Origin: Candidatus Binatia bacterium
GTDB lineage: Bacteria > Desulfobacterota > Binatia > DP-6
DNA length: 64,000 bases
Direction: 5' to 3'
NCBI GenBank assembly: GCA_035295465.1
Contig: DATGIZ010000035.1
Coordinates: forward strand, 74,677 to 138,676
The notes under the pieces: generated by a model
The model's input: the letters and a program-made list of their open reading frames with translations, nothing else
What the model was told of the DNA's origin: nothing
Database searches by the model: none
Position numbers and translations under genes: made by a program
In this document: positions 33,929 to 52,324 of the stretch, piece by piece
Numbering within the stretch: the stretch's first letter is position 1
Layout of the letters: each line of letters begins with the position of its first letter

Positions 33929-34648
33929 ATGTCGCTCGAGATGCACGAGATTACCCTCGCCGGACCGGGGAAGAACGCCCTCGGCACGGCGCTCATGACC
34001 CGGGTGCTGGCGGAGATTCGCGGCGCGGCGGGGAAGCCGCTGCTCGTGAGCGGCGCCGGCGACGCCTTCTCGGCCGGCCTCGATCTCAAGGAGGTCGCCG
34101 CGCTCGACCCGCCGGGCATGGAGCGCTACCTCGGCCTGCTCGACGATCTCGTGGACGCGCTCTACGGGCACCCGGCGCCCACCGTCGCCTGCGTGAACGG
34201 CCACGCCATCGCCGGGGGCTGCGTCGTCGCGCTCTGCTGCGATCTCCGCGTCGCCGCCGACGACCCGCGGCTGCGCATCGGGCTCAACGAGGTCCCGCTC
34301 GGCCTCGAGTTTCCGCCGAAGATCCTCGCGCTCGTGCGCCGCCGTGTGCCGCCGCGCTCGCTCGAGCGGGTCGTCCTCGAGGGCGCGCTCCACGACCCGC
34401 GCCGGGCGCTGGAGCTCGGCCTCGTCGACGAGATCGCCGCCGACGCGCGCGCCGCGGCGCGCGCCCGCCTCGCTCTCCTCGCCACCCATCCCCGAGCGGC
34501 CTACGCGGCCGCCAAACAGGCGCTGCGCTCCGGCGCCCTCGACCTCTCCGCCGAGCAGCGCCGCGACTTCCGCGAGCGCCTCGTGCCGGCCTGGTGCGCG
34601 CACGAGACCCGGGAGCGCGTGCGCGCCATGCTGCGCGGCCGCGGCTGA
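33929..34648 (+). CDS. enoyl-CoA hydratase/isomerase family protein
   Basis: Crotonase fold with GAGDAFSAGLDLKE and CVNGHAIAGGCVVALCCDLRVA. Confidence 0.85.
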   Translation: MSLEMHEITLAGPGKNALGTALMTRVLAEIRGAAGKPLLVSGAGDAFSAGLDLKEVAALDPPGMERYLGLLDDLVDALYGHPAPTVACVNGHAIAGGCVVALCCDLRVAADDPRLRIGLNEVPLGLEFPPKILALVRRRVPPRSLERVVLEGALHDPRRALELGLVDEIAADARAAARARLALLATHPRAAYAAAKQALRSGALDLSAEQRRDFRERLVPAWCAHETRERVRAMLRGRG

Positions 34649-34761
34649 CCAGGACGCCCGTCACGCACGCTTCACGTTCCGTTGGCGCTGCGGCAACGTG
34701 CCGCTGCCCGCCACGGCAGATCGACGGCGGGCGGCTCCCGGCGTCCCGCCGCCCGGCGGGC

Positions 34762-35556
34762 TCATTGCGGGTCTGCGATCAGCGCCTCGAGACGGCGCCA
34801 GTAGGGCATCCAGCGCGTGAGGATGCGGTCGCGCGTCCCGTCCTTCCACCAGCGGGCGAGCGCATCGTCGACGGCCGCACGCAGCGCGCCGTCCTCCGGG
34901 CGCATGGCCCAGCCGAGCCCATCGGTGGTGAGGGGATCGAGAATCGGCGCCAGCTCGGCCTCGTCGGCGGCCGCCCACCAGGCCACGATCGGCGCCTCGT
35001 GGACGAGCGCGTCGATGCGCTCGTCGCGCAGGTCCTCGACCGCGTCGTGCGCGGTCGGATAGGCGACGACCGCCCCGGGACAGCTCCCGGCCATGAACCG
35101 CTCGCCGGCAGTGCCGGCCACGACCCCGATCCGCACCGTGCACGTGAGCACGCGCGCCGCCGTCGGATAGCGACGGACGTCCTCGCGGCGCACGAGGAGG
35201 AGCAGGCCCGAGCGCAGGTAGGGCCGGCTGAACGCCACCGGCGCCGTCCCGGGATGGCCGACGGCGAGCCCCGCCATGGCGACGTCGATGCGGGCGCCGA
35301 GCAGCGCGGGTATCTGCTCGCCGCGCGGCAGGTCGACGAGCGCCACCGGCCGCCCGAGCGCCTCTCCCAGCTCGCGCGCGAAGTCGACCTCGATGCCGAC
35401 GAGCTGCGTGCCCTGCCGCGCGGCGAACGGCGGCGAGTCCGAGGTGACGCCGACGCGCAGCGGGGGCGGCGGGGGCGGTGCGGGCGGCGGCGGCTTCGGC
35501 CGCCCGCACGCGGCGAGCGCGAGCGCCGCCACCAGCAGCCATCGCCGGCCGGTCAC
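34762..35556 (-). CDS. ABC transporter substrate-binding lipoprotein (family 3 SBP)
   Basis: Lipobox LALAAC after a GTG start; an SBP_bac_3-like sequence. Confidence 0.7.
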   Translation of the reverse strand: MTGRRWLLVAALALAACGRPKPPPPAPPPPPPLRVGVTSDSPPFAARQGTQLVGIEVDFARELGEALGRPVALVDLPRGEQIPALLGARIDVAMAGLAVGHPGTAPVAFSRPYLRSGLLLLVRREDVRRYPTAARVLTCTVRIGVVAGTAGERFMAGSCPGAVVAYPTAHDAVEDLRDERIDALVHEAPIVAWWAAADEAELAPILDPLTTDGLGWAMRPEDGALRAAVDDALARWWKDGTRDRILTRWMPYWRRLEALIADPQ

Positions 35557-36161
35557 GGCCGGGGCCGCGCCGCCACGGCGCGCACCGCCGCCGTGATCTC
35601 GCCACCGAGGTCGGCGAGCGCGCGGCTCTGCGCCGCGACGACGGCCTCCGCGTCCGCCCCGCCCGCCGCCTGCGTGAGCGCGACGTCGCGGACGGCGAGC
35701 ACGTCCGCCGCCCGGCCGTCGCGGATCGTCACCCGCGCGACCAGCCGCACCGTGCCCGCGCGATCGGGCTCGAAGCGCGTCACGTCGACCGCGACCGCGT
35801 AGTCGAGCGGCGTACCGGACGGCCACGGGTGGAGGACGACGTCGTCGCTGCCGAGACGCAGCGCCACGTCGCGCGCCAGCGCGCGCGCGACGTTCGCCGC
35901 CAGCGGCTCCGCCCACCAGTCCCGCTCCGAGTACGCGATCTGGTTCGGCGCCACGCGCGTCGCGAGCCGGCCGTGCGCGAGGTACGGCGGCAGCGTCACC
36001 GGCCCGAGGCCGAGCGCGACGGCCAGCGGCGCGGCGGCGCCGGCCTCGGCGGCCACCGGCGTGAGCACGAAAAAGCGCGAGCGATCGGGCTGCGGCGCGA
36101 GCAGCGAGCAGCCGGCGAGCCCGATGCCGGCGAGGAGGCTCGCGACGGCGCGCGCGGTCAT
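35553..36161 (-). CDS. ABC-type transport auxiliary lipoprotein (DUF330, PqiC/YmbA-like)
   Basis: Lipobox LAGCS; position immediately after an MCE protein. Confidence 0.68.
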   Translation of the reverse strand: MTARAVASLLAGIGLAGCSLLAPQPDRSRFFVLTPVAAEAGAAAPLAVALGLGPVTLPPYLAHGRLATRVAPNQIAYSERDWWAEPLAANVARALARDVALRLGSDDVVLHPWPSGTPLDYAVAVDVTRFEPDRAGTVRLVARVTIRDGRAADVLAVRDVALTQAAGGADAEAVVAAQSRALADLGGEITAAVRAVAARPRP

Positions 36162-37141
36162 CGCCCCCCCTCGGGGACGAGCCGCCCGCGCACCACGGCG
36201 CCGGGGTTGCGCTGGAGGTAGTCCGCCAGCTCCGCGACCGCGTGCGCCGCCGCCGAGATCTCGGTGAGCGCGCGCTCGAGCTCGTAGCCGGCGGGCGCGC
36301 CGGGCCCGACGAGCGCCTGGAGGCTACGGAACGTCGCCTGCGCCTGGTCGAGCGCCGCCGCCGCGCGCCGGGAAGACTCCCGCAGGCTCTCGGCGAGCGG
36401 CGTGACGCCCCGGTCGGCGTCGTCGGCGAGGCGGCGCACGCTCTTCGCCGCCGCGCCCAGGTCCTTCACGGCGTCGTCGAGCCCGTCGGCCGCCGCCTGG
36501 ACCTTGGGCGAGGTGACCAGCCGCTTGACGCCGTCGACCGCGTCGGTGACCGAGTCCGCGAGCCGGCGCACGTCGATCTCGTCGAGCTCGGCGACGATCC
36601 GCGCCGCTCGCGCCTGCACCTCCTCGAGCGGCGTCGGGATGGTCGGGATCTCGGGATACGGCGCGCGCGGATCGCTGACGAGCTTGATCGGCGTGCCCGG
36701 GTGGAAGTCGAGATCGACGTAGAGGACGCCGGTGACGATGCTCTCGATGCCGAGCTGGCCGCGCAGCCCCTCCCGTACCAGCCCTTCCATCATGCGCGGG
36801 CTCACGATGTCGAAGGGCGCGCCGCGCTTGGTGATCTTGTCGGCGTCGAGCTCGATGACCACCGGGATGCTCACGTTGGCCGCGGTGCGCCGCGCGCCGG
36901 TCAGGTTGAGCGCGATCTGGTCGACGGATCCCACCTCCACCCCCTTGAACTTCACCGCGGCGCCGACCCGCAGCCCGTTCACCGAGCTGTCGAAGTAGAG
37001 CACGAAGCGCTGCGCGTGCCGGAAGAGCCGCCCCGAGCCGAAGGCGAGGACGCCCGCCACGGCGAGCGCCGCCGCCCCGACCACGAAGGCGCCGACGGCG
37101 GTCGCGCTCGGCCGCCTACCCACGCGCGCCGTCCTCGCCAC
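36158..37141 (-). CDS. mlaD: MCE/MlaD family protein
   Basis: N-terminal TM then an MCE domain (VKFKGVEVGSVDQIAL); a long helical C-terminus. Confidence 0.8.
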   Translation of the reverse strand: MARTARVGRRPSATAVGAFVVGAAALAVAGVLAFGSGRLFRHAQRFVLYFDSSVNGLRVGAAVKFKGVEVGSVDQIALNLTGARRTAANVSIPVVIELDADKITKRGAPFDIVSPRMMEGLVREGLRGQLGIESIVTGVLYVDLDFHPGTPIKLVSDPRAPYPEIPTIPTPLEEVQARAARIVAELDEIDVRRLADSVTDAVDGVKRLVTSPKVQAAADGLDDAVKDLGAAAKSVRRLADDADRGVTPLAESLRESSRRAAAALDQAQATFRSLQALVGPGAPAGYELERALTEISAAAHAVAELADYLQRNPGAVVRGRLVPEGGR

Positions 37142-37880
37142 GGCGCAGGAAGCGGCGCACCGTCGGGTTCTCGCAGTGGTCGCGCAGCTCGCGCGGCGGC
37201 CCGTGCGCGACGATCGTGCGGCTCTCCGCGTCGAGAAAGATGCTGTCGGTGCCGATCGCGAAGATGCTCGCCAGCTCGTGGGTCACGACGACGATCGTCG
37301 CGCCGAGGCTGTCGCGCAGCTCGAGGATCAGGTCGTCGAGGAGGCGCGAGCTGATCGGGTCGAGGCCTGCCGACGGCTCGTCGAAGAACAGGATGTCGGG
37401 GTCGAGCGCCATCGCGCGCGCGAGCCCGGCGCGCTTCTGCATGCCGCCGCTGATCTGCGCGGGGTAGAAGTCCTCGAAGCCCCGGAGCCCCACCAGCGCG
37501 AGCTTGAGCGCCGCGACCTCGCGGATCTCGGCGGGCCGCAGCGTGGTGAACTCCTCGAGCGGCAGGCTCACGTTCTCGGCGAGCGTCATCGAGCTCCAGA
37601 GCGCGCCGCTCTGGTAGAGGACGCCGAAGCGGCGCACCATCCGCTCGCGGGTCGCGGGGTCGGCACGGGTGAAGCTCTCGCCGTCGTAGAGGACCTCGCC
37701 CGCGGCGGGCTCGGCGAGGCCCACCATGTGGCGCAGCAGCGTGCTCTTGCCGCTCCCGCTACCCCCCATGACCACGAACACGTCGCCGCGGCGGACGCTG
37801 AAGTCGAGGTCGCGCATGAGCACGTAGCTGCCGTAGGCCATCGTCAAGTGCCGGACCGTGATGTGCGCCTCGGCCGCCAT
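37116..37880 (-). CDS. mlaF: ABC transporter ATP-binding protein (MlaF-like)
   Basis: Walker A GGSGSGKST; signature ISGGMQKR; Walker B ILFFDEP. Confidence 0.9.
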   Translation of the reverse strand: MAAEAHITVRHLTMAYGSYVLMRDLDFSVRRGDVFVVMGGSGSGKSTLLRHMVGLAEPAAGEVLYDGESFTRADPATRERMVRRFGVLYQSGALWSSMTLAENVSLPLEEFTTLRPAEIREVAALKLALVGLRGFEDFYPAQISGGMQKRAGLARAMALDPDILFFDEPSAGLDPISSRLLDDLILELRDSLGATIVVVTHELASIFAIGTDSIFLDAESRTIVAHGPPRELRDHCENPTVRRFLRRGEDGARG

Positions 37881-39023
37881 TTAGATCCCCAGCACCCAAA
37901 ACACGACCGCGAACAGGCCGCAGGCGCAGATGATCCACACGATGCTGGTGACCACGGCGGCGGTCGTGGCCTCCCCCACGGCCGCCGAGCTGTCACCCGA
38001 TTGCATGCCCCGGAGACACCCGGCGAGCGCCACGAGCACGCCGTAGACGCCCGCCTTGAAGACGCCGCCGGCGAGGTCGGTGAGCGTGACCGCGCCGGTG
38101 GTCTGCTGGAGGTAGACGACCGGCGAGAGGTGGAGCATGCCGACGCCGACCGCGGCACCGCCGAGCACGCCGAGCAGGTCCGAGTAGAGGCAGAGCAGCG
38201 GCATCATCACGCACAGCGCCACGAGCCGTGGCAGCACGAGGAACTCGTGCGGCGAGATGCCCATGGTGGCGAGCGCGTCGATCTCCTGCGTCACCGTCAT
38301 GCTGCCGAGCTGTGCGGCGAACGCCGCCCCGCTGCGCCCGGCCATCACGATCGCCGTCATCATCGCGCCCATCTCGCGCACCACCGCGATCCCGACGAGG
38401 TTCGCCACGTAGATCTGGGCGCCGAACTGCTGGAGCTGCACGGCGCCGACGAAGGCGAGGATCGCGCCGACGAGAAAGCTGATGAGGGAGACGATCGGCA
38501 GCGCGTCGGCCCCCACCTGCTGGACGAGGAGGAGCAGGTCCACCCGCCGATAGCGCGCGCGGCCGCGGAGCAGCCTCCCGAGCGTCATCGTGGCCTCGCC
38601 GAGGAAGCGCAGCATCTCGGCGCCCGCCGCGCCGGCGGCGAGCGCCCGGCCGCCGATGCGCGCGAGCATCGGCGGCCGCGCCGCCCGGGGGCGGGCGTCG
38701 GTCTTCTCCGGCACGGCCGCGGCGAGCGCGAGCAGGCGGCGCGCGCCGGCGGGCAGGCCCGCGGGGTCGAGCGCCACGCCGCGCGCCGCGCACGCGGCGC
38801 CCAGCGCGGCGACGAAGGTCACGACGCCGCTGTCCCAGGCGCGCAGCGCGGTGGTGTCGAAGGCCACGCGCCGCACGCCGGGCGCGGCGAGCGCGTCGTC
38901 CACGGGGGCGGTCGGGGGCACGCCCCGCTCCTGGAGCCGCCAGCTCCCCGCCAGGCCGACGACGAGCGTGTCGCCCTCGCGCTGGAGCCGCACACCCTCC
39001 CCCGCCGCGGTCCCCGTGCTCAT
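37881..39023 (-). CDS. mlaE: MlaE-family ABC permease with an N-terminal STAS (MlaB-like) domain fusion
   Basis: An N-terminal STAS-like region of about 120 aa, then an MlaE permease core; the ATG overlaps the PFK stop (ATGA). Confidence 0.82.
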   Translation of the reverse strand: MSTGTAAGEGVRLQREGDTLVVGLAGSWRLQERGVPPTAPVDDALAAPGVRRVAFDTTALRAWDSGVVTFVAALGAACAARGVALDPAGLPAGARRLLALAAAVPEKTDARPRAARPPMLARIGGRALAAGAAGAEMLRFLGEATMTLGRLLRGRARYRRVDLLLLVQQVGADALPIVSLISFLVGAILAFVGAVQLQQFGAQIYVANLVGIAVVREMGAMMTAIVMAGRSGAAFAAQLGSMTVTQEIDALATMGISPHEFLVLPRLVALCVMMPLLCLYSDLLGVLGGAAVGVGMLHLSPVVYLQQTTGAVTLTDLAGGVFKAGVYGVLVALAGCLRGMQSGDSSAAVGEATTAAVVTSIVWIICACGLFAVVFWVLGI

Positions 39024-40381
39024 CCGCCCGGGGTTCTAGCGCGGCGGCGCCGCCGCGGTCGAGGCAGGGGGCCCGCGCCGAGCAACGTCCCGGGCTGGCC
39101 GGTGGCCTCGAGCACGCGCTGCCACTCCTCGCCGGCGGGGTCGAGCCGGCGCGGGGCGCGCACGGCGAGCGGGATCGGCACGTGCACGAAGCGCTGGTTC
39201 CACCACCCGATCACGACGTTGGTGCGCCCCGCCATGCCCGCGTGCACGGCGTGCTGGCCGAGCACGAGGCAGTACCGCGCGTCGGTCGCCCCCGCCGGCA
39301 GGCTGCGGATGGCGTAGCTCGGGTCGAGGTAGCGCACGGTGACCGGCGTCCTCCGCCGCGCGAAGTGGGCCACGATGCGGTCGCGCAGGAAGACGCCGAC
39401 GTCGGCGAGCCGCACGTTCCCCGAGGCGTCGTACGTGAGCGGTCCGGGTCGCCGCGCGTGCTCCTGGCCCGCCCCCTCGGCAACCACGATCACGGCGTGG
39501 CGCTTGGCCTCGAGCCGCCGCTCGAGGGCGTCGAGGAGACCGCCGCGGCCCTCGAGCCCGAACGGCACCTCGGGCACGAGGCAGAAGTTCACGTCGCTGC
39601 TCGCGAGCGTCGCCGCGGCGGCGATGAACCCCGCGTGCCGCCCCATGAGCTTCACCAGCCCGACGCCGTTCCATGCCGCCCGCGCCTCGACGTGCGCGGC
39701 CTGCACGACCGCCCGCGCCGCCTCGACGGCGGTGGCGAAGCCGAAGCTCCGCCACGTCCACCCGAGGTCGTTGTCGATGGTCTTGGGAATGCCGACGACG
39801 GCGATCGCGCGGCGGCGCCGTGCGATCTCGGCGGCGATCGCGGCCGCGCCGCGCAACCCGCCGTCGCCGCCGCACACGAACAAAATGCCGACACGGCAGC
39901 GCTCGAGCGTGTCGACCATCTCGCGGACGTCCTGGGGGCCGCGGGAGGCGCCGAGCAACGTGCCCCCGTGCTCGTGCAGCGCGTCGACCACCGCGGGCGT
40001 GAGCACGAGCGGCGCGTGGCCGGCGCGCGCGGAGAGGCCCGCGTAGCCGTAGCGGAAGCCGAGCACGCGCCGCACGCCGTAGCCGTAGTGAAGCTCGAGC
40101 ACGAGCGCGCGGATGACGTTGTTCAGCCCGGGGCAGAGGCCGCCGCAGGTGACGATGCCGCAGGTGAGCCGGCGCGGCGCGAAGAAGAGGCGCGCGCGCG
40201 GCCCGGCCGGCTCGAACGACGGCGGCGGCAGGCCGCTGCGCACGAAGGGCTCGAGGCCGCCGAGGCTCGACGCGAGCAGCACGCGGTCGGCCTCGTCGAC
40301 GAAGGGCGCAGCCGGCGCGGGGCGGCGGCACGGGCCGAGGGTCGGCACGGCGAGCTCGGCCGGGGTGGGCGAGCCCGTCAT
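39020..40381 (-). CDS. pfk: 6-phosphofructokinase (PfkA family, long form)
   Basis: GGLCPGLNNVIRA, CGGDGG, GIPKTIDNDL and MGR motifs; only the C-terminal 454 aa of the 1000-aa track ORF is real; the ATG overlaps the RND stop (ATGA). Confidence 0.9.
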   Translation of the reverse strand: MTGSPTPAELAVPTLGPCRRPAPAAPFVDEADRVLLASSLGGLEPFVRSGLPPPSFEPAGPRARLFFAPRRLTCGIVTCGGLCPGLNNVIRALVLELHYGYGVRRVLGFRYGYAGLSARAGHAPLVLTPAVVDALHEHGGTLLGASRGPQDVREMVDTLERCRVGILFVCGGDGGLRGAAAIAAEIARRRRAIAVVGIPKTIDNDLGWTWRSFGFATAVEAARAVVQAAHVEARAAWNGVGLVKLMGRHAGFIAAAATLASSDVNFCLVPEVPFGLEGRGGLLDALERRLEAKRHAVIVVAEGAGQEHARRPGPLTYDASGNVRLADVGVFLRDRIVAHFARRRTPVTVRYLDPSYAIRSLPAGATDARYCLVLGQHAVHAGMAGRTNVVIGWWNQRFVHVPIPLAVRAPRRLDPAGEEWQRVLEATGQPGTLLGAGPLPRPRRRRRARTPGG

Positions 40382-43300
40382 TGCGGCGGCGCCCCCGCGC
40401 GCGCCGCGCGGCGCTCGCTCAGGCCCTGGAAGGTCACGTAGAAGACCGGGGCGAACAGCACCGCGAGGAAGGTCGAGGTGATCATCCCGCCGAAGACCGC
40501 GGTGCCGAGGGCGCGGCGGCTCGCCGCGCCCGCGCCGGCGGCGATCACCAGCGGGTAGACGCCGAGGATGAAGGCGAACGACGTCATGAGGATCGGCCGG
40601 AAGCGCAGGCGCGCCGCCTCGATCGCGGCCTCGGCGAGCGGGCGCCCCGCCGCGCGCTGCGCCCGCGCGAACTCCACGATGAGGATCGCGTTCTTGCTCG
40701 CCAGCGCGATCAGCAGCACGACGCCGATCTGCGTGTAGACGTTGTTGTCCATGCCGCGCAACGCCACCGCGATCACCGTCCCGAGCAGCGCCAGCGGCAC
40801 CACCAGCACCACCGCCGCCGGGTTGCTCCAGCTCTCGTACTGGGCGGCGAGGACGAGGTAGACGAGCAGCACCGCGAGCCCGAAGACGAGGAACGCCTCG
40901 CCGCCCACCTTCTTCTCCTGGTACGACATGGCCGTCCACTCGTAGCCCATCCGCTGCGGCAGCTTGGCCGCCGCCATCTGCTCCATGAGCGACAGCGCGT
41001 CGCCCGAGCTGTAGCCGGGGGCGGCCTCGCCGGTGAGCGCGGCGGAGGGATAGAGGTTGTAGCGGGTGACGAGCTGCGGGCCGAGCTTCTCGTGCACGTC
41101 GACGAGCGTCGCCAGCGGGACCATGGCGCCGGCAGGGTTGCGGACGTCGAGGCGACGGACGTCGTCGGCCGAGGTGCGGAAGGCGGGCTCGGCCTGCACG
41201 CGCACCTGGTAGGTGCGGCCGAAGCGGTTGAAGTCGTTGACGTAGACCGAGCCGAGGTAGGCCTGGAGGGTACCGAAGACGCTGCCGAGCGGGATGCCGA
41301 GCGTCTTCACCTTGGTGCGGTCGACGTCCGCGTAGAGCTGGGGCACGCCCGCGCGGAAGGTCGTGTTGAGCGCGGTGAGGCCCGACTGCGCCATGCCGTC
41401 GTGGATCATCTCCTGCGCCATCTCCTGGAGGGCGACGAGCCCGACGCCGCCGCGGTCCTCGAGCTGCATCTGGAAGCCGCCGGTGGTGCCGAGCCCGCGG
41501 ATGGCCGGCGGCGGGAAGACGAACGTGATCCCCTCCTCGACGCGGGAGAACTCCTGCCGCAGGTGCGCGAGGATGGCGTCCTGCGAGAGGCGCGGATCGC
41601 GGCGCCGCTCCCACGGCGCGAACACGACGTAGAACGCCGCCGCGTTCGAGGCGGCGGCGCCGTCGAGCACCGAGTAGCCGCCGATCGAGTTCCAGTCGGC
41701 CACCCCGGGGGTGGCGGCGATGATGCGGTTCATCCGCTCGACCACGGCGGCCGTGCGCGCCTGGGAGGCCGCGTCGGGGAGCTGCACGCCGGCGATCACG
41801 TAGCCCTGGTCCTCGGTGGGAAGGAAGCCGGTCGGCAGCGCGGCGTAGCCCCACAGCGTGACCGCGATCAGCGCCACGAAGACGAGCAGCATCGCCCGTG
41901 GCCGGCGGACCATCCCGGCGACGACGCCCACGTACGCGCGCTCGAGCTGCGCATAGGCGGCGTTGAAGGCACGGGCGAACGGGTTGCGGTGCGCGCGCGT
42001 CGGGCGCAGCCACACGGCGCACTGCGCGGGCTTGAGGGTGAGCGCGTTCACCGCGCTGATCGCCGCGGTGACGGCGATGGTGAGCGCGAACTGCCGGTAG
42101 AGCTGGCCGGTGATCCCGCCCAGGAAGGCCGAGGGCAGAAACACCGCCATCAGCACGGCGGTGATCCCGATCACCGGCCCGGTCACCTCGTTCATCGCCC
42201 GGATCGTCGCATCGCGCGGGCTCAGACCGTCGCGATCGATGTGGTGCGCGGCGTTCTCCACGATCACGATCGCGTCGTCGACCACGATCCCGATCGCGAG
42301 CACGAGACCGAAGAGCGTGAGCAGGTTCACGGTGAAGCCGAACGCCGCCATGCCCGTGAACGCGCCGACGATGGTCACCGGCACCGTCGTCGCCGGCACG
42401 ACCAGCGCGCGCCAGTCCTGGAGGAAGGCGAGGATCACGACCAGCACCAGCACGCCGGCCTCGAGGAGCGTGCGGTAGACCTCGTTGATCGCCTGGCGCA
42501 CGAACCTGGTCGTGTCGAACGGGATGTCGTACACGACGCCCTCGGGGAACGATCCCTTGAGCTGGTCCATCGTCTCGCGCACGCGCGTGGCCACCTCGAG
42601 CGCGTTGGCGCCGGGGAGCTGAAAGATCGCGATGCCCGCCGCGGGCTTGCCCCCCTTCTGGAAGAACTGGTCGTAGACCTGGCTGCCGAGCTCCACCCGC
42701 GCGACGTCGCGCAGCCGGGTGATGCGCGCGCCCGCGGCCTTCACCACGATGTCCTCGAACTGCGCGACGTCCCGCAGCCGGCCGAGCGTCGTCACGGTGT
42801 ACTGGAAAACCTGGCCCGGCGGCACCGGCGGCTGCCCGATCTGCCCGGCGGCGACCTGCACGTTCTGCTCCTCGATCGCCGCCACGACGTCCTGCGTGGT
42901 GAGGCCGCGGGCCTTCAGCCGCGGGGGGTCGAGCCAGATGCGCATGCTGTAGTCGCCGGCGCCGAAGATCGTCACGTCGCCGACGCCATAGATCCGGCTG
43001 AGCGCGTCGCGCAGGTGGATCGTGGCGTAGTTGGTGAGGTAGAGGCTGTCGTACCGCTCGTCGGGCGAGGTGAGCGTGACGAACTGGATGATGTTCGTCG
43101 ACTGCTTCTTGGTGGTGATCCCCTGCCGCTTCACCTCGTCGGGGAGCAGGGGCTGCGCGATCGCGACCCGGTTCTGCACCAGAACCTGCGCGATGTCGAG
43201 GTCGGTGCCGACGTCGAAGGTGACGGTGAGCTTGTAGGAGCCGTCGCTGGCGCTGGTCGACGACATGTAGAGCATGTGCTCGACGCCGTTCACCTGCTGC

Positions 43301-43500
43301 TCGATGGGCTGGGCGACCGTGTCGGCGACCACCTGGGCGTCGGCGCCCGGGTAGACGGTCGAGACCTGGACGGTCGGCGGCGTGATCTGCGGGTACTGCT
43401 CGATCGGCAGCGCGCGCAGGGTCACCAGCCCGAAGATGATCGTGACGATCGCGATGACGTTGGCGAAGATCGGCCGATCGATGAAGAACCGCGAGATCAT
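40378..43500 (-). CDS. efflux RND transporter permease (AcrB/MexB family)
   Basis: 1040 aa with 12-TM RND architecture; N-terminus MISRFFIDRPIFANVIAIV. Confidence 0.95.
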   Translation of the reverse strand: MISRFFIDRPIFANVIAIVTIIFGLVTLRALPIEQYPQITPPTVQVSTVYPGADAQVVADTVAQPIEQQVNGVEHMLYMSSTSASDGSYKLTVTFDVGTDLDIAQVLVQNRVAIAQPLLPDEVKRQGITTKKQSTNIIQFVTLTSPDERYDSLYLTNYATIHLRDALSRIYGVGDVTIFGAGDYSMRIWLDPPRLKARGLTTQDVVAAIEEQNVQVAAGQIGQPPVPPGQVFQYTVTTLGRLRDVAQFEDIVVKAAGARITRLRDVARVELGSQVYDQFFQKGGKPAAGIAIFQLPGANALEVATRVRETMDQLKGSFPEGVVYDIPFDTTRFVRQAINEVYRTLLEAGVLVLVVILAFLQDWRALVVPATTVPVTIVGAFTGMAAFGFTVNLLTLFGLVLAIGIVVDDAIVIVENAAHHIDRDGLSPRDATIRAMNEVTGPVIGITAVLMAVFLPSAFLGGITGQLYRQFALTIAVTAAISAVNALTLKPAQCAVWLRPTRAHRNPFARAFNAAYAQLERAYVGVVAGMVRRPRAMLLVFVALIAVTLWGYAALPTGFLPTEDQGYVIAGVQLPDAASQARTAAVVERMNRIIAATPGVADWNSIGGYSVLDGAAASNAAAFYVVFAPWERRRDPRLSQDAILAHLRQEFSRVEEGITFVFPPPAIRGLGTTGGFQMQLEDRGGVGLVALQEMAQEMIHDGMAQSGLTALNTTFRAGVPQLYADVDRTKVKTLGIPLGSVFGTLQAYLGSVYVNDFNRFGRTYQVRVQAEPAFRTSADDVRRLDVRNPAGAMVPLATLVDVHEKLGPQLVTRYNLYPSAALTGEAAPGYSSGDALSLMEQMAAAKLPQRMGYEWTAMSYQEKKVGGEAFLVFGLAVLLVYLVLAAQYESWSNPAAVVLVVPLALLGTVIAVALRGMDNNVYTQIGVVLLIALASKNAILIVEFARAQRAAGRPLAEAAIEAARLRFRPILMTSFAFILGVYPLVIAAGAGAASRRALGTAVFGGMITSTFLAVLFAPVFYVTFQGLSERRAARAGAPPQ

Positions 43501-43510
43501 GCCGGCCGCC

Positions 43511-44674
43511 TCAGCGCGCGAGCGGGGCCTCGGGCACCGGCTTGGTCTCGGTGCGCGTCGCCTTCACCACCGCGCCCGGCCGCGCCCGCTGGAGGCCGGC
43601 GACGATCACCCAGTCCTGCGGCCCGATCCCGTCGGTGACGATGCGCATCCCCTCGCCCACCGCCTGGCCCACGTGCACGCGGCGATACGCGACGGCGCCC
43701 CGGTCGTCCACCGTGAGCACGTACTGTCCGCCCTGGTCGGCGGCGAGCGCCACCTCGGGCACGAGTAGCGCGCGCTCCCGCGTGAACGGCAGGCGCACGC
43801 GGCCGAAGAGCCCGGGCACGACGATGTGATCCGGGTTGGGGAAGACCGCACGGATCTCGATCGTGCCCGTGTCCGGGTCGACGCGGTTGCTCGCGTAGTC
43901 GACTTCGCCCGCGTGCGGGAACCCGACGTCGGTGGCGAGCGCGAGGTAGGCGGCGTTCGGCCGGCCCGCCGGCGCCGCGGTCCGGTTCTCGCGCTGCAGC
44001 TCGCGGTAGCGCAGCAGCTCGGACTCGCTCGCCGTGAAGTAGAAGTAGATGGGGTCGTCGCGCACGAGGGTGGCGAGCAGCGTCGCCTCGCCCGCGCCGA
44101 CGAGGTTGCCGACGTCGACCAGGTTGCGGTCGATGCGGCCGTCGAAGGGCGCGTAGATGTGGGTGTAGGAGAGGTCGAGCTTGGCGGCGGCGAGGGTGGC
44201 CTTCGCTCCCTCGACCTGCGCCCGGGCCAGATCGCGCTGCTGGGTCTTGTTGACGAGGTCGGTGCGGCTGCCGGCGGCGCGCCGGAAGATGGCCTGGGTG
44301 ATCTCGAGCTGCTCCTGCGCGGCCCGGTACTGCGCCTCCTTGCCGTCGAGGTCGGCCTGCGCCTGGTCGACGCGGGCCTGGTAGAGCGTGGGCTCGATCA
44401 CGAAGAGGAGCTGGCCTTTGTGCACGGCGCTGCCGGGGACGAACTCGACGCTCTGGAGGTAGCCCTGCACGCGGGCGCGGATGTCCGCGCTCTCGACCGC
44501 GGCGGTGTGCCCGGAGAACTCGGCGTACGTGGTGACCTCCTGCTCCAGGGGGCGGCTCACGGTGACCGGCGGCGGCGGCGGCGGCGCGTAGCGGTTCCCG
44601 CGGCCGCAGGCGGCGAGGAGCGCGAGCGCGAGGGGCAGCGCGCGCGTCACCACTCGGGCCACCACCAGCGCCAT
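43511..44674 (-). CDS. efflux RND transporter periplasmic adaptor (membrane fusion protein)
   Basis: Lipobox LLAACG; MFP barrel/lipoyl motifs; only the C-terminal 387 aa of the 878-aa track ORF is real. Confidence 0.9.
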   Translation of the reverse strand: MALVVARVVTRALPLALALLAACGRGNRYAPPPPPPVTVSRPLEQEVTTYAEFSGHTAAVESADIRARVQGYLQSVEFVPGSAVHKGQLLFVIEPTLYQARVDQAQADLDGKEAQYRAAQEQLEITQAIFRRAAGSRTDLVNKTQQRDLARAQVEGAKATLAAAKLDLSYTHIYAPFDGRIDRNLVDVGNLVGAGEATLLATLVRDDPIYFYFTASESELLRYRELQRENRTAAPAGRPNAAYLALATDVGFPHAGEVDYASNRVDPDTGTIEIRAVFPNPDHIVVPGLFGRVRLPFTRERALLVPEVALAADQGGQYVLTVDDRGAVAYRRVHVGQAVGEGMRIVTDGIGPQDWVIVAGLQRARPGAVVKATRTETKPVPEAPLAR

Positions 44675-46215
44675 TGCCACCAGCGGCGCGGGCGTTCGTC
44701 GGCCGCGGCCCGGGCGACTGCCGCCGCCCCCCGCGCGGCGGCGCGCGGGCCGCCGGCACGCAGCGCGGCGGGCACGAAGTCGTGCCCGTCGCGGATCTCC
44801 CACCCGCCGCCGAGCGCCTTGTAGAGCGCGATCACGCTGAGGGCGACGCTGCCGCGGGTGGACGCGAGCAGATCCTCCTCCTTGAGCTTCGCCTGCTGCG
44901 CGTTGAGCACCGCCGTGTAGTCCGTCGCCCCCTCGCGGTACTGGACCAGGGCCAGCTCGACGGCGCGGTCGGCGGCGGCGACGCTCTCGGTGAGGCGCCG
45001 CACGCGCGCCGTGCCGCGGAGGTAGCCGACGAGCGCGTCTTCGACCTCCTGCTGCGCGAGCAGCACCGCGCTGGCATACGCGAGCGCGAGCTCGTGGAAC
45101 GTCGCGTCCTGAAGCCGCACGTTGCCGACGAGGCGCCCGTAGTTGAGCACCGGCCAGGTGAACGTCGGGCCGGCCATGGCCTGGAACGACCGCCCCTCGA
45201 AGAATTTGGCCGCGTCCTGCGCACTCAACCCGACCGAGCCCGTCAGCTCGAACGCCGGGAGCAGGTCGGCGACCGCCACCCCGATGCGCGCGCTCTGCGC
45301 CGCCGCGGCCAGCTCGGCGCTGCGCACGTCGGGGCGCCGGCGCAGCAGCTCTGCGGGGATGCCGACGGTCACGGTGGCCGGCACCTCGGGGACGTGTCCG
45401 GGGCCGCCGAGCAGCTCGCCCAGGTCCTGCGGCGGCCCGCCGAGCAGGACGCAGAGCGAGTCGACGGCGCGACGCCGCTCGATCTCGAGCGCGGGGATGG
45501 TCGCCTGCGTGTCGCGCAGCAGCGTCGTCGCCTGCTGTACGTCCAGCTCGGACGTGCCGCCCGCCTCCCAGCGCACGCGGGCGATGCGCAGCCCGTCGCG
45601 CTGCGCCCGCACGTTGTCGCGGGCGACCGCGAGCCGCTCGTCGTCGACGCGTACGCCGACGTACGTGGTCGCCACCTCCGCCAGCAGGCTCACCAGCACA
45701 TCGTCGTAGCCGGCGACCGCGCCGAGGAGATCGGCGTCGGCCGCCTCGACGCCGCGGCGCAGCTTGCCCCAGAGGTCGAGCTCCCATGACGCGTCGAACC
45801 CCGCCTGCCAGTTGTCGAAGCCGCGGCCGAAGAAGGGCGGGATCACGCCGTTGGCGCTGAGCAACGTGCGCGTGTAGGCGCCCGTCACCTCCTGCGTCTG
45901 CGGAAAGAGCCCGCCGATGGCGATCGCGCGCCGCGCCTGCGCCTCGAGCACGCGCACGCCGGCGGTGCGCAGCGTGAGGTTCTGCGCGTAGGCCGTCTCG
46001 ACGAGGCGGGTGAGCGTCGGATCCCCGAACGCCGCCCACCAGCGCAGCCCGTCGGCCGGCGTGGCGCGCACCGCAGCCTCGCCCGCTTCGAGCCAGGTCG
46101 CGGCCACCGGGGTGGCAGGACGCACGTAGTTGGGGCCGACCATGCACCCGCTGCCGACGAGGAGCAGGAGGACGGCGGTGCCGGTACGACGATGCGCACC
46201 CCGGTCCGAGGTCAT
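44647..46215 (-). CDS. efflux transporter outer membrane factor (NodT/OprM family lipoprotein)
   Basis: Lipobox LLVGSGC; two repeated OEP halves. Confidence 0.9.
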   Translation of the reverse strand: MTSDRGAHRRTGTAVLLLLVGSGCMVGPNYVRPATPVAATWLEAGEAAVRATPADGLRWWAAFGDPTLTRLVETAYAQNLTLRTAGVRVLEAQARRAIAIGGLFPQTQEVTGAYTRTLLSANGVIPPFFGRGFDNWQAGFDASWELDLWGKLRRGVEAADADLLGAVAGYDDVLVSLLAEVATTYVGVRVDDERLAVARDNVRAQRDGLRIARVRWEAGGTSELDVQQATTLLRDTQATIPALEIERRRAVDSLCVLLGGPPQDLGELLGGPGHVPEVPATVTVGIPAELLRRRPDVRSAELAAAAQSARIGVAVADLLPAFELTGSVGLSAQDAAKFFEGRSFQAMAGPTFTWPVLNYGRLVGNVRLQDATFHELALAYASAVLLAQQEVEDALVGYLRGTARVRRLTESVAAADRAVELALVQYREGATDYTAVLNAQQAKLKEEDLLASTRGSVALSVIALYKALGGGWEIRDGHDFVPAALRAGGPRAAARGAAAVARAAADERPRRWWQWRWWWPEW

Positions 46216-46264
46216 CGGGCAGGGGCTGGTATCGCAGCTTCTCGCCGCCGAGGGAAGCTCGGGC

Positions 46265-46909
46265 TCAGCGCGCCGCGCCGGCCGGTTTCGCGCGGTCGCC
46301 GCGGATCGCGGCCGCGAGCCGGTGGGCGGTCTCGCCGAGCGCCCCGTCGAGGATCTCGCGCCGCGTCATCCAGCGCCCGCCGCCCTGGACGAAGCGGGGA
46401 AGGTCGAGCAGGTTCGCGGTGAGCGGCTGCTGCGTGTAGTCGAACTGGTCGGTGGCGACCACCGCGCCGTCGGGCACGCGCACCAGCTCGACCTGATAGG
46501 CCACGGACGCGGGCGAACGCGCCCCGACCGCCGTTCCCTCCCGTTCGACGTACCGCAGCACCGCGCCCAGGACGGCGAGGTTCGCCCCGGCGCGCGCCGC
46601 CGCCCGCGCCGCGCTCGCGGCGTCCTGCGTCGCCTCCGGCCCGACCCGCAGATCGGCCACCGCGATGCCCGTCTTGGCCAGCTCCGCCGCGAGCGTGTCC
46701 GCCGCCGTGGCGCCGAGGTCGTCGGGCATCGACGCGGCGTCGCGCCAGCGCACGAACGCACCCGTGGGCGCGAGCGAGCCGCCGAGGCCGAACGGCAGCA
46801 CGAGGACCCGCGGCGGCGCCGTCAGCGCCACGCCCGGCGCGGCGCCGCCCTGATGTGGCCCGCAGGCGGCGACGGAGGCGAGGAGGAGCAGGGCCCAGGC
46901 GGTGCGCAT
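46265..46909 (-). CDS. hypothetical lipoprotein
   Basis: Signal/lipobox LLLASVAACG; sits within the frame of a longer artefactual ORF. Confidence 0.45.
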   Translation of the reverse strand: MRTAWALLLLASVAACGPHQGGAAPGVALTAPPRVLVLPFGLGGSLAPTGAFVRWRDAASMPDDLGATAADTLAAELAKTGIAVADLRVGPEATQDAASAARAAARAGANLAVLGAVLRYVEREGTAVGARSPASVAYQVELVRVPDGAVVATDQFDYTQQPLTANLLDLPRFVQGGGRWMTRREILDGALGETAHRLAAAIRGDRAKPAGAAR

Positions 46910-46919
46910 GCGCCCGCGT

Positions 46920-47606
46920 CTACCCGATGCGTCCCGCGGCGTCGACGGAGCCCCCGGCGGGCGCGGCGAGACCCGTCGGACACCGTACCCCGGTGCCGCC
47001 GAGGCCGCAGTAGCCTCCGGGATTCTTGGCCAGGTACTGCTGGTGGTAGTCCTCGGCGTAGTAGAACGCCGGGGCGGCGACGATCTCGGTCGTGATCGCG
47101 CCGTGGCCCGCGGCCGCGAGCGCCTGCTGGTAGGCCGTGCGCGAGGCCTCCGCGGCGCGCCGCTGGGCCGTCGAGTGACAGTAGATCGCCGAGCGGTACT
47201 GCGTGCCGACGTCGTTACCCTGCCGCATCCCCTGGGTGGGGTCGTGGCTCTCCCAGAACAGACGCAGGAGCGCCTCGTAGCCGGTGCGCGCCGGGTCGAA
47301 GACCACCCGGACCACCTCGGCGTGCCCCGTGCGCCCGGAGCACACCTCCTCGTAGGTGGGGTTCGGCGTGAAGCCACCGGCGTAGCCCACCGCGGTCGTG
47401 AACACGCCCGGCGCCTGCCAGAACTTCCGCTCCGCCCCCCAGAAGCAGCCCATCGCGAACGTCGCGATCTCGAGCCCGGCGGGAAACGGCGGCGCCATCG
47501 GCGCGTCGAGCACCGCGTGTCGCGGCGCCACCGCCATCGGCTGCGAGCGGCCGGGAAGCGCTTCCTCTCGGGTGGGCATCTTCGGCGGACCCGCGTGCAG
47601 CAGCAT
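46920..47606 (-). CDS. msrA: peptide-methionine (S)-S-oxide reductase MsrA
   Basis: GCFWG active site and conserved MsrA core. Confidence 0.9.
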
Positions 47607-47637
47607 GGCGGAACCTTATCAGCTAAAGGGCGCGCGG

Positions 47638-50538
47638 TCACGACGACGCGCCCGCCGCCCCGAGCGTGACGCGCACCGCGGCGGGCTCTCCGTCGGGCTC
47701 GGCCCCCGGCTCCGTCTGGGCGATGCGCCCGGGCTCGATGCCGTGGCGGTCGCGGAGCAGGGCGGTGACGCGCTCGAGGCGCGCGGCGGCGAGCGCGCGC
47801 AGCTCGGCGGGCGGCGGCGGCGGGCGCTCGGCGAGCCAGCGCTCGAGGGCGGCCGCGTCGTCCGGATCGAGCTTCCCCTCCTGGTCGCGGGCGCGTGCCT
47901 CGAGCGCGGCCGCGACCCGCTGCCGCACGCCGCGCTCGCCGAGCGTCCGCAGCGTACCGAGCACACCCTGCGGCGCCGTGAGCTCGGCCCGCAGCGCCTG
48001 CTCGCGCAACCAGCGCGCGTCCTGGACGCTCGGCGCCGCGGCCAGCGTCACGCCGACGCCGGGGCGGCTCGCGAGGAAGGCGGCGAGCTGGCTCACCTGC
48101 TCCGTGCCTTCGGGCGTCAGCTCAGCACGGCCGGGGCGAAAGACGATCGGTGCGGGCGCAACCGTCTGTCCCTCCCCGCCGCCGAGCACCGCGCCCACGA
48201 GCTTGAGCGGGGAGGCGAGCGCGTTCACGAGCGCCCGGCGCAGCGCCTGCCCGACCACGGCGAGCGCGTCGACCCTGGTGCCCGCGGCGTCGTACGCCAC
48301 GGGCACGTCGAGCGCGATGTCGCCGTGCACGTCGCGCATCAGCGCGAGCGCCATCGACAAGGGAATGCCGAACTGCTGCTCGAACAGCGGGTCGCCGGCG
48401 CGGCTGGCGAGGTCGAAACCGTGGAGCGTGAGCGCCGTGTCGGCGTCGTAGCGGCCCGCGCCGAAGGTGGCCTTCGCCGACAGCGACAGGCGGCCCTTGC
48501 CGATGCTGTAAGGCGAGAAGGCGGTGGCGTACGGGTTGAAGGGGCGCAGCGCGATCTGGCGGCCGTTCACCTCGAGGCGGCCCCCGCTCGGCGCGAGCGA
48601 GCCCGTCACCTCGATGCGCCCCTTCTCCGCGCCGGTCGCCTCGAAGCGCAGGCGCCGCATGGCGAGCGCGGGCCAGCGCAGGTCGTCGACCTCGAGGGCA
48701 AGCGCGGCGAGCGCTCCCTCGTAGAAGGGCCTAACCGTGCGATCGGTCACGGCGACGTAGCCGTCGGTCACGCGCACTCGACCGGCGCTCACCTCGACGA
48801 GGGGCGAGGCGATGGGCGGCGCGGGCGGTGCGTCGGCTGGCGCCGGCGGCGGCGCCTTCGCGGGGCCGAGCGGCGGCAGGACGAGACCCGCGGCCGTGCG
48901 GGTAAGCCGCGCGTAGGGCGCTGCGAGCGAGAGCGCGGCGAGCCGCACGCCGATCGCACGGCCCGGCACCTCGCCGGCGCCAAGAAGGCCCGGGACGTCC
49001 ACGTCGTCGATGCGGACGTCGAGCGACCGTGCCCCGACGGCGAACTCGTGCGCGTCGGCCGCCGCCAGCCACGGCTCGCCGAGCGTCACCGTCCCCTGCA
49101 CGCGCACGTCCCCCGGGGTCGGGGCCGCCACCCCCGCGGCGACGCGGAGATCCGCGGCGAGCTGGCCCTTCTGCAGCACGCCGGGCGCGAGCGCGCCCAG
49201 CGCGGCGACCAGCGGCGGGAGATCGAGCCGGTCGACCCTGACGGCGCCGTCGAAGCCCACCGGCGCCACCCGCAGCTCGCCGTCGACGGCGACGGAGCCG
49301 TCGCCGGCCCCGAGCGCCAGCTTCAGGTGCGCGGGCGCCGCGCTCTCGTCGCCGGCGAGGCCCCGCGCGTCGAGCCCGACGGCGACGTCGAGGGGCGCCG
49401 CGGCGAGCACGTGCACGCGCCCGTCGGTCACGGCGAGCGCATCGACCGCCCAGTGCCACGGCGTAGCCGGCGCGGCCGCCGGCGCGCCGGCCGGCGCGCT
49501 CGCGGACCGGGCGCCGGCGAGCAGCGGCAGCGGCGCTGCGTCCCCGGGGCGGACCGCGATCGTCGCGCCCCGAAGGTCGACCTCCCGCAGCGCGAGCCGC
49601 CGCGCATCGAGGTCGAGGGTGGCGATCCGCAGCGCGAGCCGCTCCCAGGCGAGCGCCGGCTCGTCGAGCCCCGGCACGTCGACGGCGACGCCCGTGAGCC
49701 ATACGGCGCCGCTCAACGCGTTGCGCTTGCCGGTCGTGAAGCGCTCGCGCAGCGCCGCCGCCAGCTCGCCACGCAGGCCCCGCCAGCCGACGTGCGGGAC
49801 GTAGACCCGCGCGCGCCGCAGCGGGAGCCGCTTCGCCCGCACGTCGCCGGTGAGCGTCATCCCCCCGTCGGCCGCGAGCGCGAGGCGCGCGTCGACCCGC
49901 AGCGTCCCCCGGTCCACGGTCGCGGTGAGCCGCGCCCGCGCGGGCTCGCCGTAGAGCCCTGGCCGGACCGCCACGTCGTGCACGTCGACCGCCGGCAGGC
50001 CCACCTCGAGCGGCTCGCTCTGCGGTGTGGCGAGGTCGCGAAAGAGGATGCGGCCGTCGCGCACCGCGAGCCGATCGATGCCGACCGCCCAGCCGCCGCC
50101 CGGGGCCGGCGGCGGCGTGCCCGCCGGCGCGGGCGAGCCGGCGGGCACGAGCGCCGCCAGGTTGAGCGTGCCGTCCGCGCGGCGCTCGAGCGCGACGCGC
50201 GCGCCGTCGAGCTCGAGCGCCCGCAGCCGCACCGTCCGCCGCATCAGCGGCAGCCAGCGCACCGAGAGCACGAGCCGCTTCCAGGCGACCAACACCGGCT
50301 CGTCCGCGGCGCCCGGCGCCGCCGCCGGGCGCACCGCGACGTCGTCGAGCGCGATCGCGCCGCGCAGCAGCGCCAGGTCGACGTCGCCGATCGTGACGCG
50401 CGCGCGGAGCGCCTTCGACGCCTGCGCGGCGAGCACGCGGCGGACTACGTCGGGCAGGAGCGCCCGCACCCCGAGCGCGAGGACGAGCAGCACGAGCAGC
50501 CGCCGGCGGACGGGTCGCGCGGTCCCGGCCCTGGGCAC
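47638..50538 (-). CDS. DUF748/AsmA-like large envelope protein
   Basis: N-terminal TM anchor; a long repetitive beta-rich body; a C-terminal DUF748-like region; GTG start. Confidence 0.65.
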   Translation of the reverse strand: MPRAGTARPVRRRLLVLLVLALGVRALLPDVVRRVLAAQASKALRARVTIGDVDLALLRGAIALDDVAVRPAAAPGAADEPVLVAWKRLVLSVRWLPLMRRTVRLRALELDGARVALERRADGTLNLAALVPAGSPAPAGTPPPAPGGGWAVGIDRLAVRDGRILFRDLATPQSEPLEVGLPAVDVHDVAVRPGLYGEPARARLTATVDRGTLRVDARLALAADGGMTLTGDVRAKRLPLRRARVYVPHVGWRGLRGELAAALRERFTTGKRNALSGAVWLTGVAVDVPGLDEPALAWERLALRIATLDLDARRLALREVDLRGATIAVRPGDAAPLPLLAGARSASAPAGAPAAAPATPWHWAVDALAVTDGRVHVLAAAPLDVAVGLDARGLAGDESAAPAHLKLALGAGDGSVAVDGELRVAPVGFDGAVRVDRLDLPPLVAALGALAPGVLQKGQLAADLRVAAGVAAPTPGDVRVQGTVTLGEPWLAAADAHEFAVGARSLDVRIDDVDVPGLLGAGEVPGRAIGVRLAALSLAAPYARLTRTAAGLVLPPLGPAKAPPPAPADAPPAPPIASPLVEVSAGRVRVTDGYVAVTDRTVRPFYEGALAALALEVDDLRWPALAMRRLRFEATGAEKGRIEVTGSLAPSGGRLEVNGRQIALRPFNPYATAFSPYSIGKGRLSLSAKATFGAGRYDADTALTLHGFDLASRAGDPLFEQQFGIPLSMALALMRDVHGDIALDVPVAYDAAGTRVDALAVVGQALRRALVNALASPLKLVGAVLGGGEGQTVAPAPIVFRPGRAELTPEGTEQVSQLAAFLASRPGVGVTLAAAPSVQDARWLREQALRAELTAPQGVLGTLRTLGERGVRQRVAAALEARARDQEGKLDPDDAAALERWLAERPPPPPAELRALAAARLERVTALLRDRHGIEPGRIAQTEPGAEPDGEPAAVRVTLGAAGASS

Positions 50539-50547
50539 TCGCGCTAG

Positions 50548-51189: not shown

Positions 51190-51281
51190 CGGACGACATC
51201 AAGCGGTTCCCCGCGCGCTGTCAAGCTCGCGCCGCGGGCGACCCCCGGCTGGCACGGCGCTCCGTGCTCGTCTACCTGTGG

Positions 51282-51854: not shown

Positions 51855-52324
51855 CCGACGCCACGATCGCGTGCCTGTCCGAGCGCATGCTGCTCGCCCT
51901 CGCCGAGGGCGACGGCGACCGCGAGGCGCAGGCCCACCTCCGCGGCTGCGTGCTCTGCGCGGGCCGCTTCCGGCGCCTGTCGGGCGACATCGCGCGCATC
52001 GCGCGCGTCCTGCGCGAGCCCCCGCCCCGTCCCCTTTCGCACCGCGCGCCGCGCTGGCTGCCGGCGGTGGCGGCGGTCGCCACCGCGGCGGCGCTGCTCG
52101 GAACGCTCCTCCTGCCGCGTTACGGCGCTCCGCCGGCGGCCGGCGGCCGGCCCGCCACCGACCCGCTGCCGGCGGAAGTCCTCGCGCGCGGCGAGGCGGA
52201 GCCTGTCGCCCTGCGCCGGGCCGACAACGACCTTTTGGCCGCGGCCCTCGAGGAGCCGTTCCCCTGCGAGTGGTCCGAGGGTGGTTGCGACGACGACACC
52301 GACCCCGCGTTCGGCGGGGAGTGA
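51851..52324 (+). CDS. anti-sigma factor (zf-HC2 type) with one TM segment
   Basis: The ATG overlaps the sigma stop; HLRGCVLCAGRF zinc-finger motif; TM helix WLPAVAAVATAAALLGTLLL. Confidence 0.7.
   Translation: MTDATIACLSERMLLALAEGDGDREAQAHLRGCVLCAGRFRRLSGDIARIARVLREPPPRPLSHRAPRWLPAVAAVATAAALLGTLLLPRYGAPPAAGGRPATDPLPAEVLARGEAEPVALRRADNDLLAAALEEPFPCEWSEGGCDDDTDPAFGGE

Follow-up and report, generated by a model that had tools for sequence, protein, structure and literature searches.

The 64,000-nucleotide stretch of contig DATGIZ010000035.1 analysed here (the window) comes from an uncultured soil bacterium of Candidatus Binatia, whose compact genome has a G+C content of about 75%. On its minus strand, a gene for 6-phosphofructokinase (PFK) lies between a three-gene RND efflux pump and an Mla-like MCE transporter module, and overlaps the adjoining gene at each end. 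The question raised by this locus is whether a glycolytic enzyme has been functionally coupled to two envelope transport machines, as proposed in a preliminary description of the same DNA, or whether unrelated genes have come to lie side by side. Comparison with near relatives points to the second answer. We consider, with a probability of about 0.8, that known, independent and ordinary modules were joined by recent, lineage-specific accretion and do not form a conserved functional unit.

True reading frames were picked out among the many spurious high-GC open reading frames of the window, where G+C content is about 71-78% outside one lower-GC island, and gene families were assigned by Pfam and NCBIfam profile matches. 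The nine genes named in the preliminary description (outer-membrane factor, OMP; periplasmic adaptor, MFP; RND permease; PFK; STAS-MlaE; MlaF; MlaD; DUF330 lipoprotein; and solute-binding lipoprotein, SBP) were recovered in the same order, strand, positions and families. Both overlaps flanking the PFK gene can be read directly from the sequence. ATGA at 40378-40381 places the RND stop over the PFK start (...CCGCAATGACGGGC...), and ATGA at 39020-39023 places the PFK stop over the MlaE start (...GGCGGATGAGCACG...). The co-directional array is longer than first described. It comprises 13 genes (34762-51189), including four additional genes 5' of the pump that encode a TetR regulator, an AsmA-like DUF748 protein, MsrA and a 214-aa lipoprotein. 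The largest gap within the array is at most 49 nt.

The nearest relatives, obtained from protein-cluster look-ups and a metagenome scan, were loci L001, L002 and L003 (PFK 86% identical) and L089 (PFK 88% identical), which represent two lineages. L001 and L089 share about 91% nucleotide identity, and each is about 84% identical to the window. All four loci display the order DUF748-(BrkB)-MsrA-lipoprotein-PFK-MlaE-MlaF-MlaD-auxiliary lipoprotein-SBP, with the 4-nt PFK/MlaE overlap and no pump. The window segment carrying OMP-MFP-RND (40371-46261, 5.9 kb) is without counterpart in both lineages, a clean insertion/deletion of cassette size that separates the lipoprotein stop from the PFK start. 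By blastn, the breakpoints matched L001 position 9996 to window position 46262 and L001 position 10009 to window position 40370, and L089 behaved alike. In L001 the lipoprotein gene stops 7 nt before the PFK start, the two genes being direct neighbours without the pump. The 214-aa lipoprotein of the window is 79% identical to its L089 homologue, and its gene lies directly upstream of PFK in the relatives. The RND-PFK junction is therefore present in this genome only and missing from both nearest relatives. The junction sequences showed neither direct repeats nor mobile-element genes at the breakpoints.

A difference of this kind might be produced by a faulty assembly, with the RND cassette chimerically joined to the PFK-Mla region. 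The source is indeed a metagenome-assembled contig, and the cassette is missing from the nearest relatives. However, three assemblies from three pipelines (JGI 3300005533, ENA ERZ27279679 and Logan SRR5579871) agree 100% with the window across both junctions, although they were possibly built from the same reads. Moreover, both flanks of the cassette are collinear with the relatives, G+C content at third codon positions (GC3) is uniform over the junctions, and the reading frames are intact, with precise overlaps. We thus give almost no credence to an assembly artefact.

The pump appears to be a self-contained unit. Its three genes are contiguous (40378-46215) and each scores above its family cutoff, as tested for a tripartite HAE1 system. 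The closest RND homologues, which are 82-83% identical and also come from Binatia, display the same OEP-MFP-RND order in three other neighbourhoods (TetR/SLT...Pirin/citrate synthase twice, TetR/fatty-acid desaturase once). Because these homologues stand alone in other surroundings, the cassette can be regarded as autonomous. The TetR gene of the window lies 4.3 kb upstream of the pump and has no orthologue among the TetR genes that accompany RND cassettes in other Binatia. This gene (50548-51189) was considered as a displaced cognate regulator of the pump and rejected, its similarity to the TetR proteins beside homologous cassettes being at the level of the helix-turn-helix only (26-32% over 47-97 aa). 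The OMP extends about 50 aa past the NodT model (44647-44790, minus strand), with a Trp-rich end (...RRWWQWRWWWPEW) and a 28-nt overlap with the MFP start; its homologues in L169 and L171 are likewise long (533-545 aa).

Other differences of cassette size were detected in the same region. The TetR gene is present only in the window and missing at this position in L001 and L089. A BrkB/YihY-family gene lies between the DUF748 gene and msrA in L001 (7780-8664), and probably in L089; it is missing from the window, where only 50 nt remain (47587-47636). Finally, an ECF-sigma cluster is present in L089 and missing in L001. These differences, all within 20 kb, indicate that genes are readily gained and lost here.

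The PFK-MlaE junction is shared by the window and the four related loci, a shallow clade of about 84-91% nucleotide identity, and it is confined to them: it was missing from 84 other PFK loci. Four of these, with PFK homologues at 66-73% identity (70-73% on the full hit), place the gene elsewhere, and every homologue below about 75% identity is without Mla adjacency. The other 80 came from a species scan of GTDB species-representative genomes from many phyla (best identity 65%, with neither the window's own genome nor a close relative among the hits); in none of the 80 is PFK found within 10 kb of a gene for MlaE, an MCE protein or the auxiliary lipoprotein. The neighbours of PFK are instead PEPCK in L004, isoamylase and acetate kinase in L005, GAPDH and a carboxylesterase in L007, and an integrase in L008. 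The same result was obtained from the transporter side. Among 80 metagenome loci with full-length STAS-MlaE homologues (55-86% identity), PFK was present at a single one, L089, and the gene upstream of MlaE was heterogeneous in the 46 callable loci (MerR in 3, DUF2461 in 2, DUF3313 in 2, and many singletons). Since the arrangement is not conserved, the evidence does not support a "supra-operon" in which a glycolytic enzyme would be coupled with two envelope machines. The fallback offered in the preliminary description, simple operon accretion, is the reading favoured by this lineage-specific juxtaposition.

The overlapping stop and start codons had been taken to imply translational coupling. 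However, 4-nt overlaps are commonplace in the array, being no more than the genome background gives: they occur at 4 of 11 array junctions, compared with 3 among the 13 co-directional pairs in the rest of the window. In the relatives too, overlaps of 4 nt join unrelated genes, as for carboxylesterase/PFK in L007 (10001-10004, the PFK start over the carboxylesterase stop) and DUF748/BrkB in L001. The two overlaps of interest both involve variable protein ends. The C-terminal tail of the window PFK is about 16-18 residues longer, Arg-rich and unconserved, and it ends at the MlaE start. In L001 the tail ends ...EPPTMFAGARFRHRRASRAHR, and outgroup PFKs end ...QPASMVG(R/H). Such an ending is consistent with a PFK frame extended across what was once a spacer, as far as the MlaE start. 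The RND permease carries between 3 and about 25 residues after the conserved SERR; as the length of this tail varies in all homologues, the position of the RND stop appears unconstrained. As such overlaps probably stem from a cassette-sized insertion or deletion and from frames run into former spacers, tight packing alone should not be taken as a sign of functional coupling.

Consensus scans were also performed over 34000-51000, although such scans say little for a 75% GC organism. No sigma-70-like promoter was found. Five terminator-like sites were detected against 2.1 ± 1.6 expected, a chance-level number, and all were located within coding sequence. The 4-nt overlaps, together with the lack of room for terminators, make read-through and termination-reinitiation coupling physically plausible. 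On this layout, the array genes are probably co-transcribed by read-through, and neighbouring genes may be translationally coupled.

We then come to the enzyme itself. Residues 7-431 of the PFK align to positions 8-440 of the 445-position profile NF005301, a full-length equivalog match above the curated cutoff. A protein with 100% identity to it, from a Candidatus Binatia metagenome-assembled genome, is named ATP-dependent 6-phosphofructokinase by NCBI. The closest solved structures are 2hig (T. brucei) and 6qu3 (E = 1e-106), residues 51-432 being aligned to the T. brucei ATP-PFK structure. The motifs reported earlier are intact (GGDG at residue 171, PKTIDND at 199, MGR at 246). DPSY is found at residue 353, and MGR and DPSY..R, which form the fructose-6-phosphate site, are identical blocks in the comparison with 2hig. 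The enzyme had been described with an N-terminal extension of about 85 aa. This segment is the normal N-terminal domain of the PRK06830/trypanosomatid-like clade, because NF005301 aligns from residue 7 and T. brucei PFK from residue 51; T. brucei PFK has an extra N-terminal domain (PMC12203962).

The phosphate donor was considered in the light of known signatures. GGDG marks ATP-dependent PFKs, whereas GGDD and the Lys of PKTIDXD mark pyrophosphate (PPi)-dependent ones (PMC12203962). Gly rather than Lys in P(G/K)TIDXD is the usual state of ATP-dependent enzymes, and the window PFK has Lys. T. brucei PFK, whose ATP dependence is experimentally established, carries PKTIDND too in the alignment; the motif is therefore not decisive for the donor within this clade. 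By its NF005301 match, the window PFK falls in the ATP-dependent, PRK06830/trypanosomatid-like long clade. Given GGDG and the clade, ATP dependence is the best prediction. Metabolic coupling by ATP supply, as suggested in the preliminary description, is then mechanistically unlikely, since a predicted ATP-PFK consumes ATP and would not supply it to its neighbours.

The unusual gene context could mean that the "PFK" is a neofunctionalised paralogue, for instance a kinase acting on a lipid or on another sugar phosphate and serving the neighbouring transporters. The PFK fold is common to diacylglycerol kinases, and a weak Pfam DAGK_cat match was obtained (E = 6.9e-5, 22.9 bits, just under the 23.6 cutoff), which is what this shared fold would be expected to give. 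The NF005301 equivalog match reaches 592 bits over the full length for a cutoff of 400, the protein aligns to the T. brucei structure at the E value given above with GGDG, PKTIDND, MGR and DPSY..R all kept, and the nearest homologues lie in central-carbon contexts (PEPCK, GAPDH, isoamylase). A change of function is thus very improbable.

A more serious competitor is selected coupling. Here, PFK would be co-expressed and translationally coupled with the Mla-like transporter in the whole clade and, in this genome, also with the RND pump. If so, glycolytic flux (triose-phosphate/glycerol-3-phosphate for phospholipid synthesis) would be tied to envelope lipid trafficking. The window, L001, L002, L003 and L089 all retain the 4-nt overlap of PFK and MlaE, and many genes of the array serve the envelope (AsmA-like DUF748, lipoproteins, MCE system, RND pump). 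Moreover, L004 (GCA_036563615.1, 10001-21368) has a PFK gene divergent from PEPCK, a DUF748/YhdP-like gene and an MlaE gene within about 12 kb, though not adjacent. This grouping may go back to a loosely linked set of genes in an ancestor, or it may be coincidental and involve a paralogous Mla system, the MlaE of L004 being only 51% identical. Outside the shallow clade, however, the linkage is missing from every PFK locus compared, the 4 closer ones as well as the 80 of the species scan, and 79 of the 80 MlaE loci lack it too. The PFK is an unspecialised, full equivalog match, and its divergence from L001 (86% identity) is comparable with that of its neighbours (86-91%). Furthermore, an ATP-PFK consumes ATP and cannot supply it. 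Among the literature naming both PFK and MlaE, no item concerns such an operon, judging by titles and abstracts, and nothing relevant was found in the literature on Binatota and glycolysis. Selected coupling is therefore unlikely, and beyond the common descent of close relatives nothing supports it. A specific version of it, in which the Mla-like operon acquired PFK as its first gene, the ATGA coupling came under selection and the pump was since added to the same transcript, appears more doubtful still; on that view, glycolytic flux to triose phosphates/glycerol-3-phosphate would be expressed at a constant ratio to an envelope lipid transporter.

We therefore return to accretion as the preferred explanation, which probably proceeded in two steps. 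PFK would have been placed directly upstream of the Mla-like module in a recent common ancestor of the window and its two nearest relatives. The RND cassette would then have been placed, or retained, between the upstream lipoprotein gene and PFK in the window lineage only. The modules brought together are an autonomous NodT-MFP-RND pump, an ordinary PFK predicted to be ATP-dependent, a four-gene MCE transporter and a lineage-specific SBP at the 3' end. The ATGA overlaps would be by-products of compaction, the PFK frame extending through about 16-18 Arg-rich codons and the RND frame ending in a length-variable tail. We infer that the linkage of the array genes is incidental rather than a selected functional coupling.

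Several points weigh against this explanation. The PFK-MlaE ATGA overlap is kept in all three lineages of the clade, a pattern that either weak selection or shared ancestry could produce. The GC3 of the RND cassette (0.945-0.979) equals that of its neighbours, with no compositional sign of recent foreign origin; a horizontal origin is thus not arguable from composition. L001 and L089 are sisters to which the window is the outgroup, so that a deletion in their ancestor is as parsimonious as an insertion in the window lineage. In addition, the pfk copy number is known for the 64-kb window only. Close to its N-terminus the window PFK lacks a Trp that is otherwise conserved. This was considered as evidence for an insertion and rejected: the change is a single TGG-to-TCG substitution in a homologous stretch and says nothing about direction.

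The transporter module downstream of PFK was compared with its homologues. The order MlaE, MlaF, MCE protein and PF03886 lipoprotein is kept in nearly all of the 80 MlaE loci with enough downstream sequence. The four-gene MCE module is thus widespread and not new. The STAS part of the earlier STAS-MlaE assignment held at family level, not for the window protein alone. The latter remains below threshold (20 bits against 29.2), whereas 56 of 61 homologous N-terminal domains match STAS_2, the best with E = 1.9e-10; for this reason the fusion of STAS to MlaE can be considered real. The MlaE protein scores 204.6 with its NCBIfam subfamily model, just under the 212.2 cutoff. The MlaD-like protein reaches only 33.8 against the 135 required by the MlaD equivalog TIGR04430, and its C-terminal 200 aa resemble PqiB (NF008070 positions 274-509, E = 1e-29). 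An alternative GTG start at 37141 would give this protein 327 aa. A Pfam scan of the 13 array genes gave no MlaC match, the slot after MlaD being occupied by the PF03886 lipoprotein. PqiA is likewise not present in the array, and the MCE protein has one MCE domain and only a partial PqiB-like C-terminus. Judged by these profiles, the module is a hybrid MCE transporter, neither the canonical Mla pathway nor a Pqi system.

Besides the window, an SBP gene 3' of the Mla-like module was seen only in L001 and L089, and not in the other 79 MlaE loci. It is an addition to the 3' end that is particular to this lineage. In L120, an SBP_bac_3 gene overlaps the STAS-MlaE start by 4 nt (1627-1630); there the SBP lies upstream, not downstream.

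The positions and profile matches of the array genes are collected in Table 1, with those of the genes of a separate island described below.

Table 1. Genes of the minus-strand array, in order of transcription, and named genes of the integrative island. Positions are those of the window.
Feature	Position	Strand	Profile matches and remarks
TetR-family regulator	50548-51189	-	Pfam TetR_N + TetR_C_24; first array gene, 9 nt upstream of the DUF748 gene
AsmA-like DUF748 envelope protein, 966 aa	47638-50538	-	Pfam DUF748 335 bits, AsmA; collinear with L001, L089
Peptide methionine sulfoxide reductase MsrA	46920-47606	-	Pfam PMSR 217 bits
Predicted lipoprotein, 214 aa, conserved	46265-46909	-	No Pfam match; lipobox-like N-terminus LLLASVAAC
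OMP, NodT-family outer-membrane factor, 522 aa	44647-46215	-	PF02321 OEP; TIGR01845 322 bits (cutoff 210)
MFP, periplasmic adaptor, 387 aa	43511-44674	-	TIGR01730 261.5 bits (cutoff 94.9); HlyD_D23
HAE1-type RND permease, 1040 aa	40378-43500	-	PF00873 ACR_tran 1132.6 bits; NF000282 1355.7 (cutoff 1250)
Predicted ATP-dependent 6-phosphofructokinase (PFK), 453 aa	39020-40381	-	PF00365; NF005301 592.5 bits (cutoff 400)
MlaE-type ABC permease with fused N-terminal STAS-like domain, 380 aa	37881-39023	-	PF02405 233.8 bits, residues 167-373
MlaF-like ABC ATPase, 254 aa	37116-37880	-	PF00005 99.9 bits; best NCBIfam model MlaF PRK11831, under the equivalog cutoff
Single-MCE MlaD-like protein, 321 aa (public gene calls, L173)	36158-37123	-	PF02470 42.9 bits
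PqiC-like auxiliary lipoprotein (ABC_trans_aux, DUF330), 202 aa	35553-36161	-	PF03886 125.5 bits; lipobox LAGC
Family-3 solute-binding lipoprotein (SBP)	34762-35556	-	PF00497 SBP_bac_3 77.8 bits; last array gene
Island: tyrosine integrase	21773-23299		
Island: DUF3987	19540-20790		
Island: Prim-Pol/PriCT	18713-19543		
Island: deaminase-domain protein, 524 aa	13816-15390		
Island: SocA/Panacea antitoxin-like gene	12733-13212		
Island: zf-HC2 + trypsin-like protein	8304-9941		
Island: TPR-CHAT protein, 971 aa	5392-8307		

Three further features of the window were recorded. Divergent from the array, a four-gene operon on the plus strand (51264-53274) contains two 4-nt overlaps and one zero gap; it encodes an ECF sigma factor, a 157-aa protein without family, a Metal_resist/LTXXQ periplasmic protein and a 145-aa protein without family. 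An integrative island of about 19.5 kb (3660-23221, G+C 62-66%) lies at a tRNA-Leu(taa) gene (23134-23221, minus strand). It is bounded by a direct repeat of about 55 nt that copies the 3' half of the tRNA (3660-3717 and 23131-23188) and, besides the genes of Table 1, carries a helix-turn-helix regulator; its cargo may be defence-related. Finally, a selenocysteine tRNA gene was found on the plus strand (27430-27524; Rfam 74.8 bits, ARAGORN anticodon TCA), from which selenoprotein synthesis in this organism is probable.

Altogether, each module of the array is a new member, from an uncultured lineage, of a well-known family, and their recent, lineage-specific juxtaposition carries little biological weight. 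Where a genome is compact and GC-rich, unrelated genes easily come to share 4-nt stop/start overlaps and to line up in long one-strand arrays. Whether such a layout reflects packing or coupling is a question that comparison with near relatives quickly settles.

The modules can finally be set against known systems. With E. coli MlaFEDB (plus MlaC and MlaA), the window shares the MlaE permease, the MlaF-like ATPase, the MCE protein and the STAS domain, which is the counterpart of MlaB; it differs in that STAS is fused to the N-terminus of MlaE and that the array lacks an MlaC or MlaA gene. With E. coli PqiABC it shares the PF03886 PqiC-family lipoprotein, but it has no PqiA and a single-MCE rather than a multi-MCE protein. 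The pump compares with HAE1 systems of the AcrAB-TolC, MexEF-OprN and OqxAB type, all three components scoring above curated cutoffs and the adaptor being closest to MexE and OqxA. The outer-membrane factor comes first in the window (OMP-MFP-RND), as in the Binatia homologues, and no cognate regulator is adjacent. The PFK, whose N-terminus is shorter than in other Binatia homologues, is bacterial, unlike the T. brucei and T. cruzi enzymes (PDB 2hig/3f5m and 6qu3), and it shares with the T. brucei enzyme the mixed signature of an ATP-type GGDG and a PKTIDND with the Lys of PPi enzymes.

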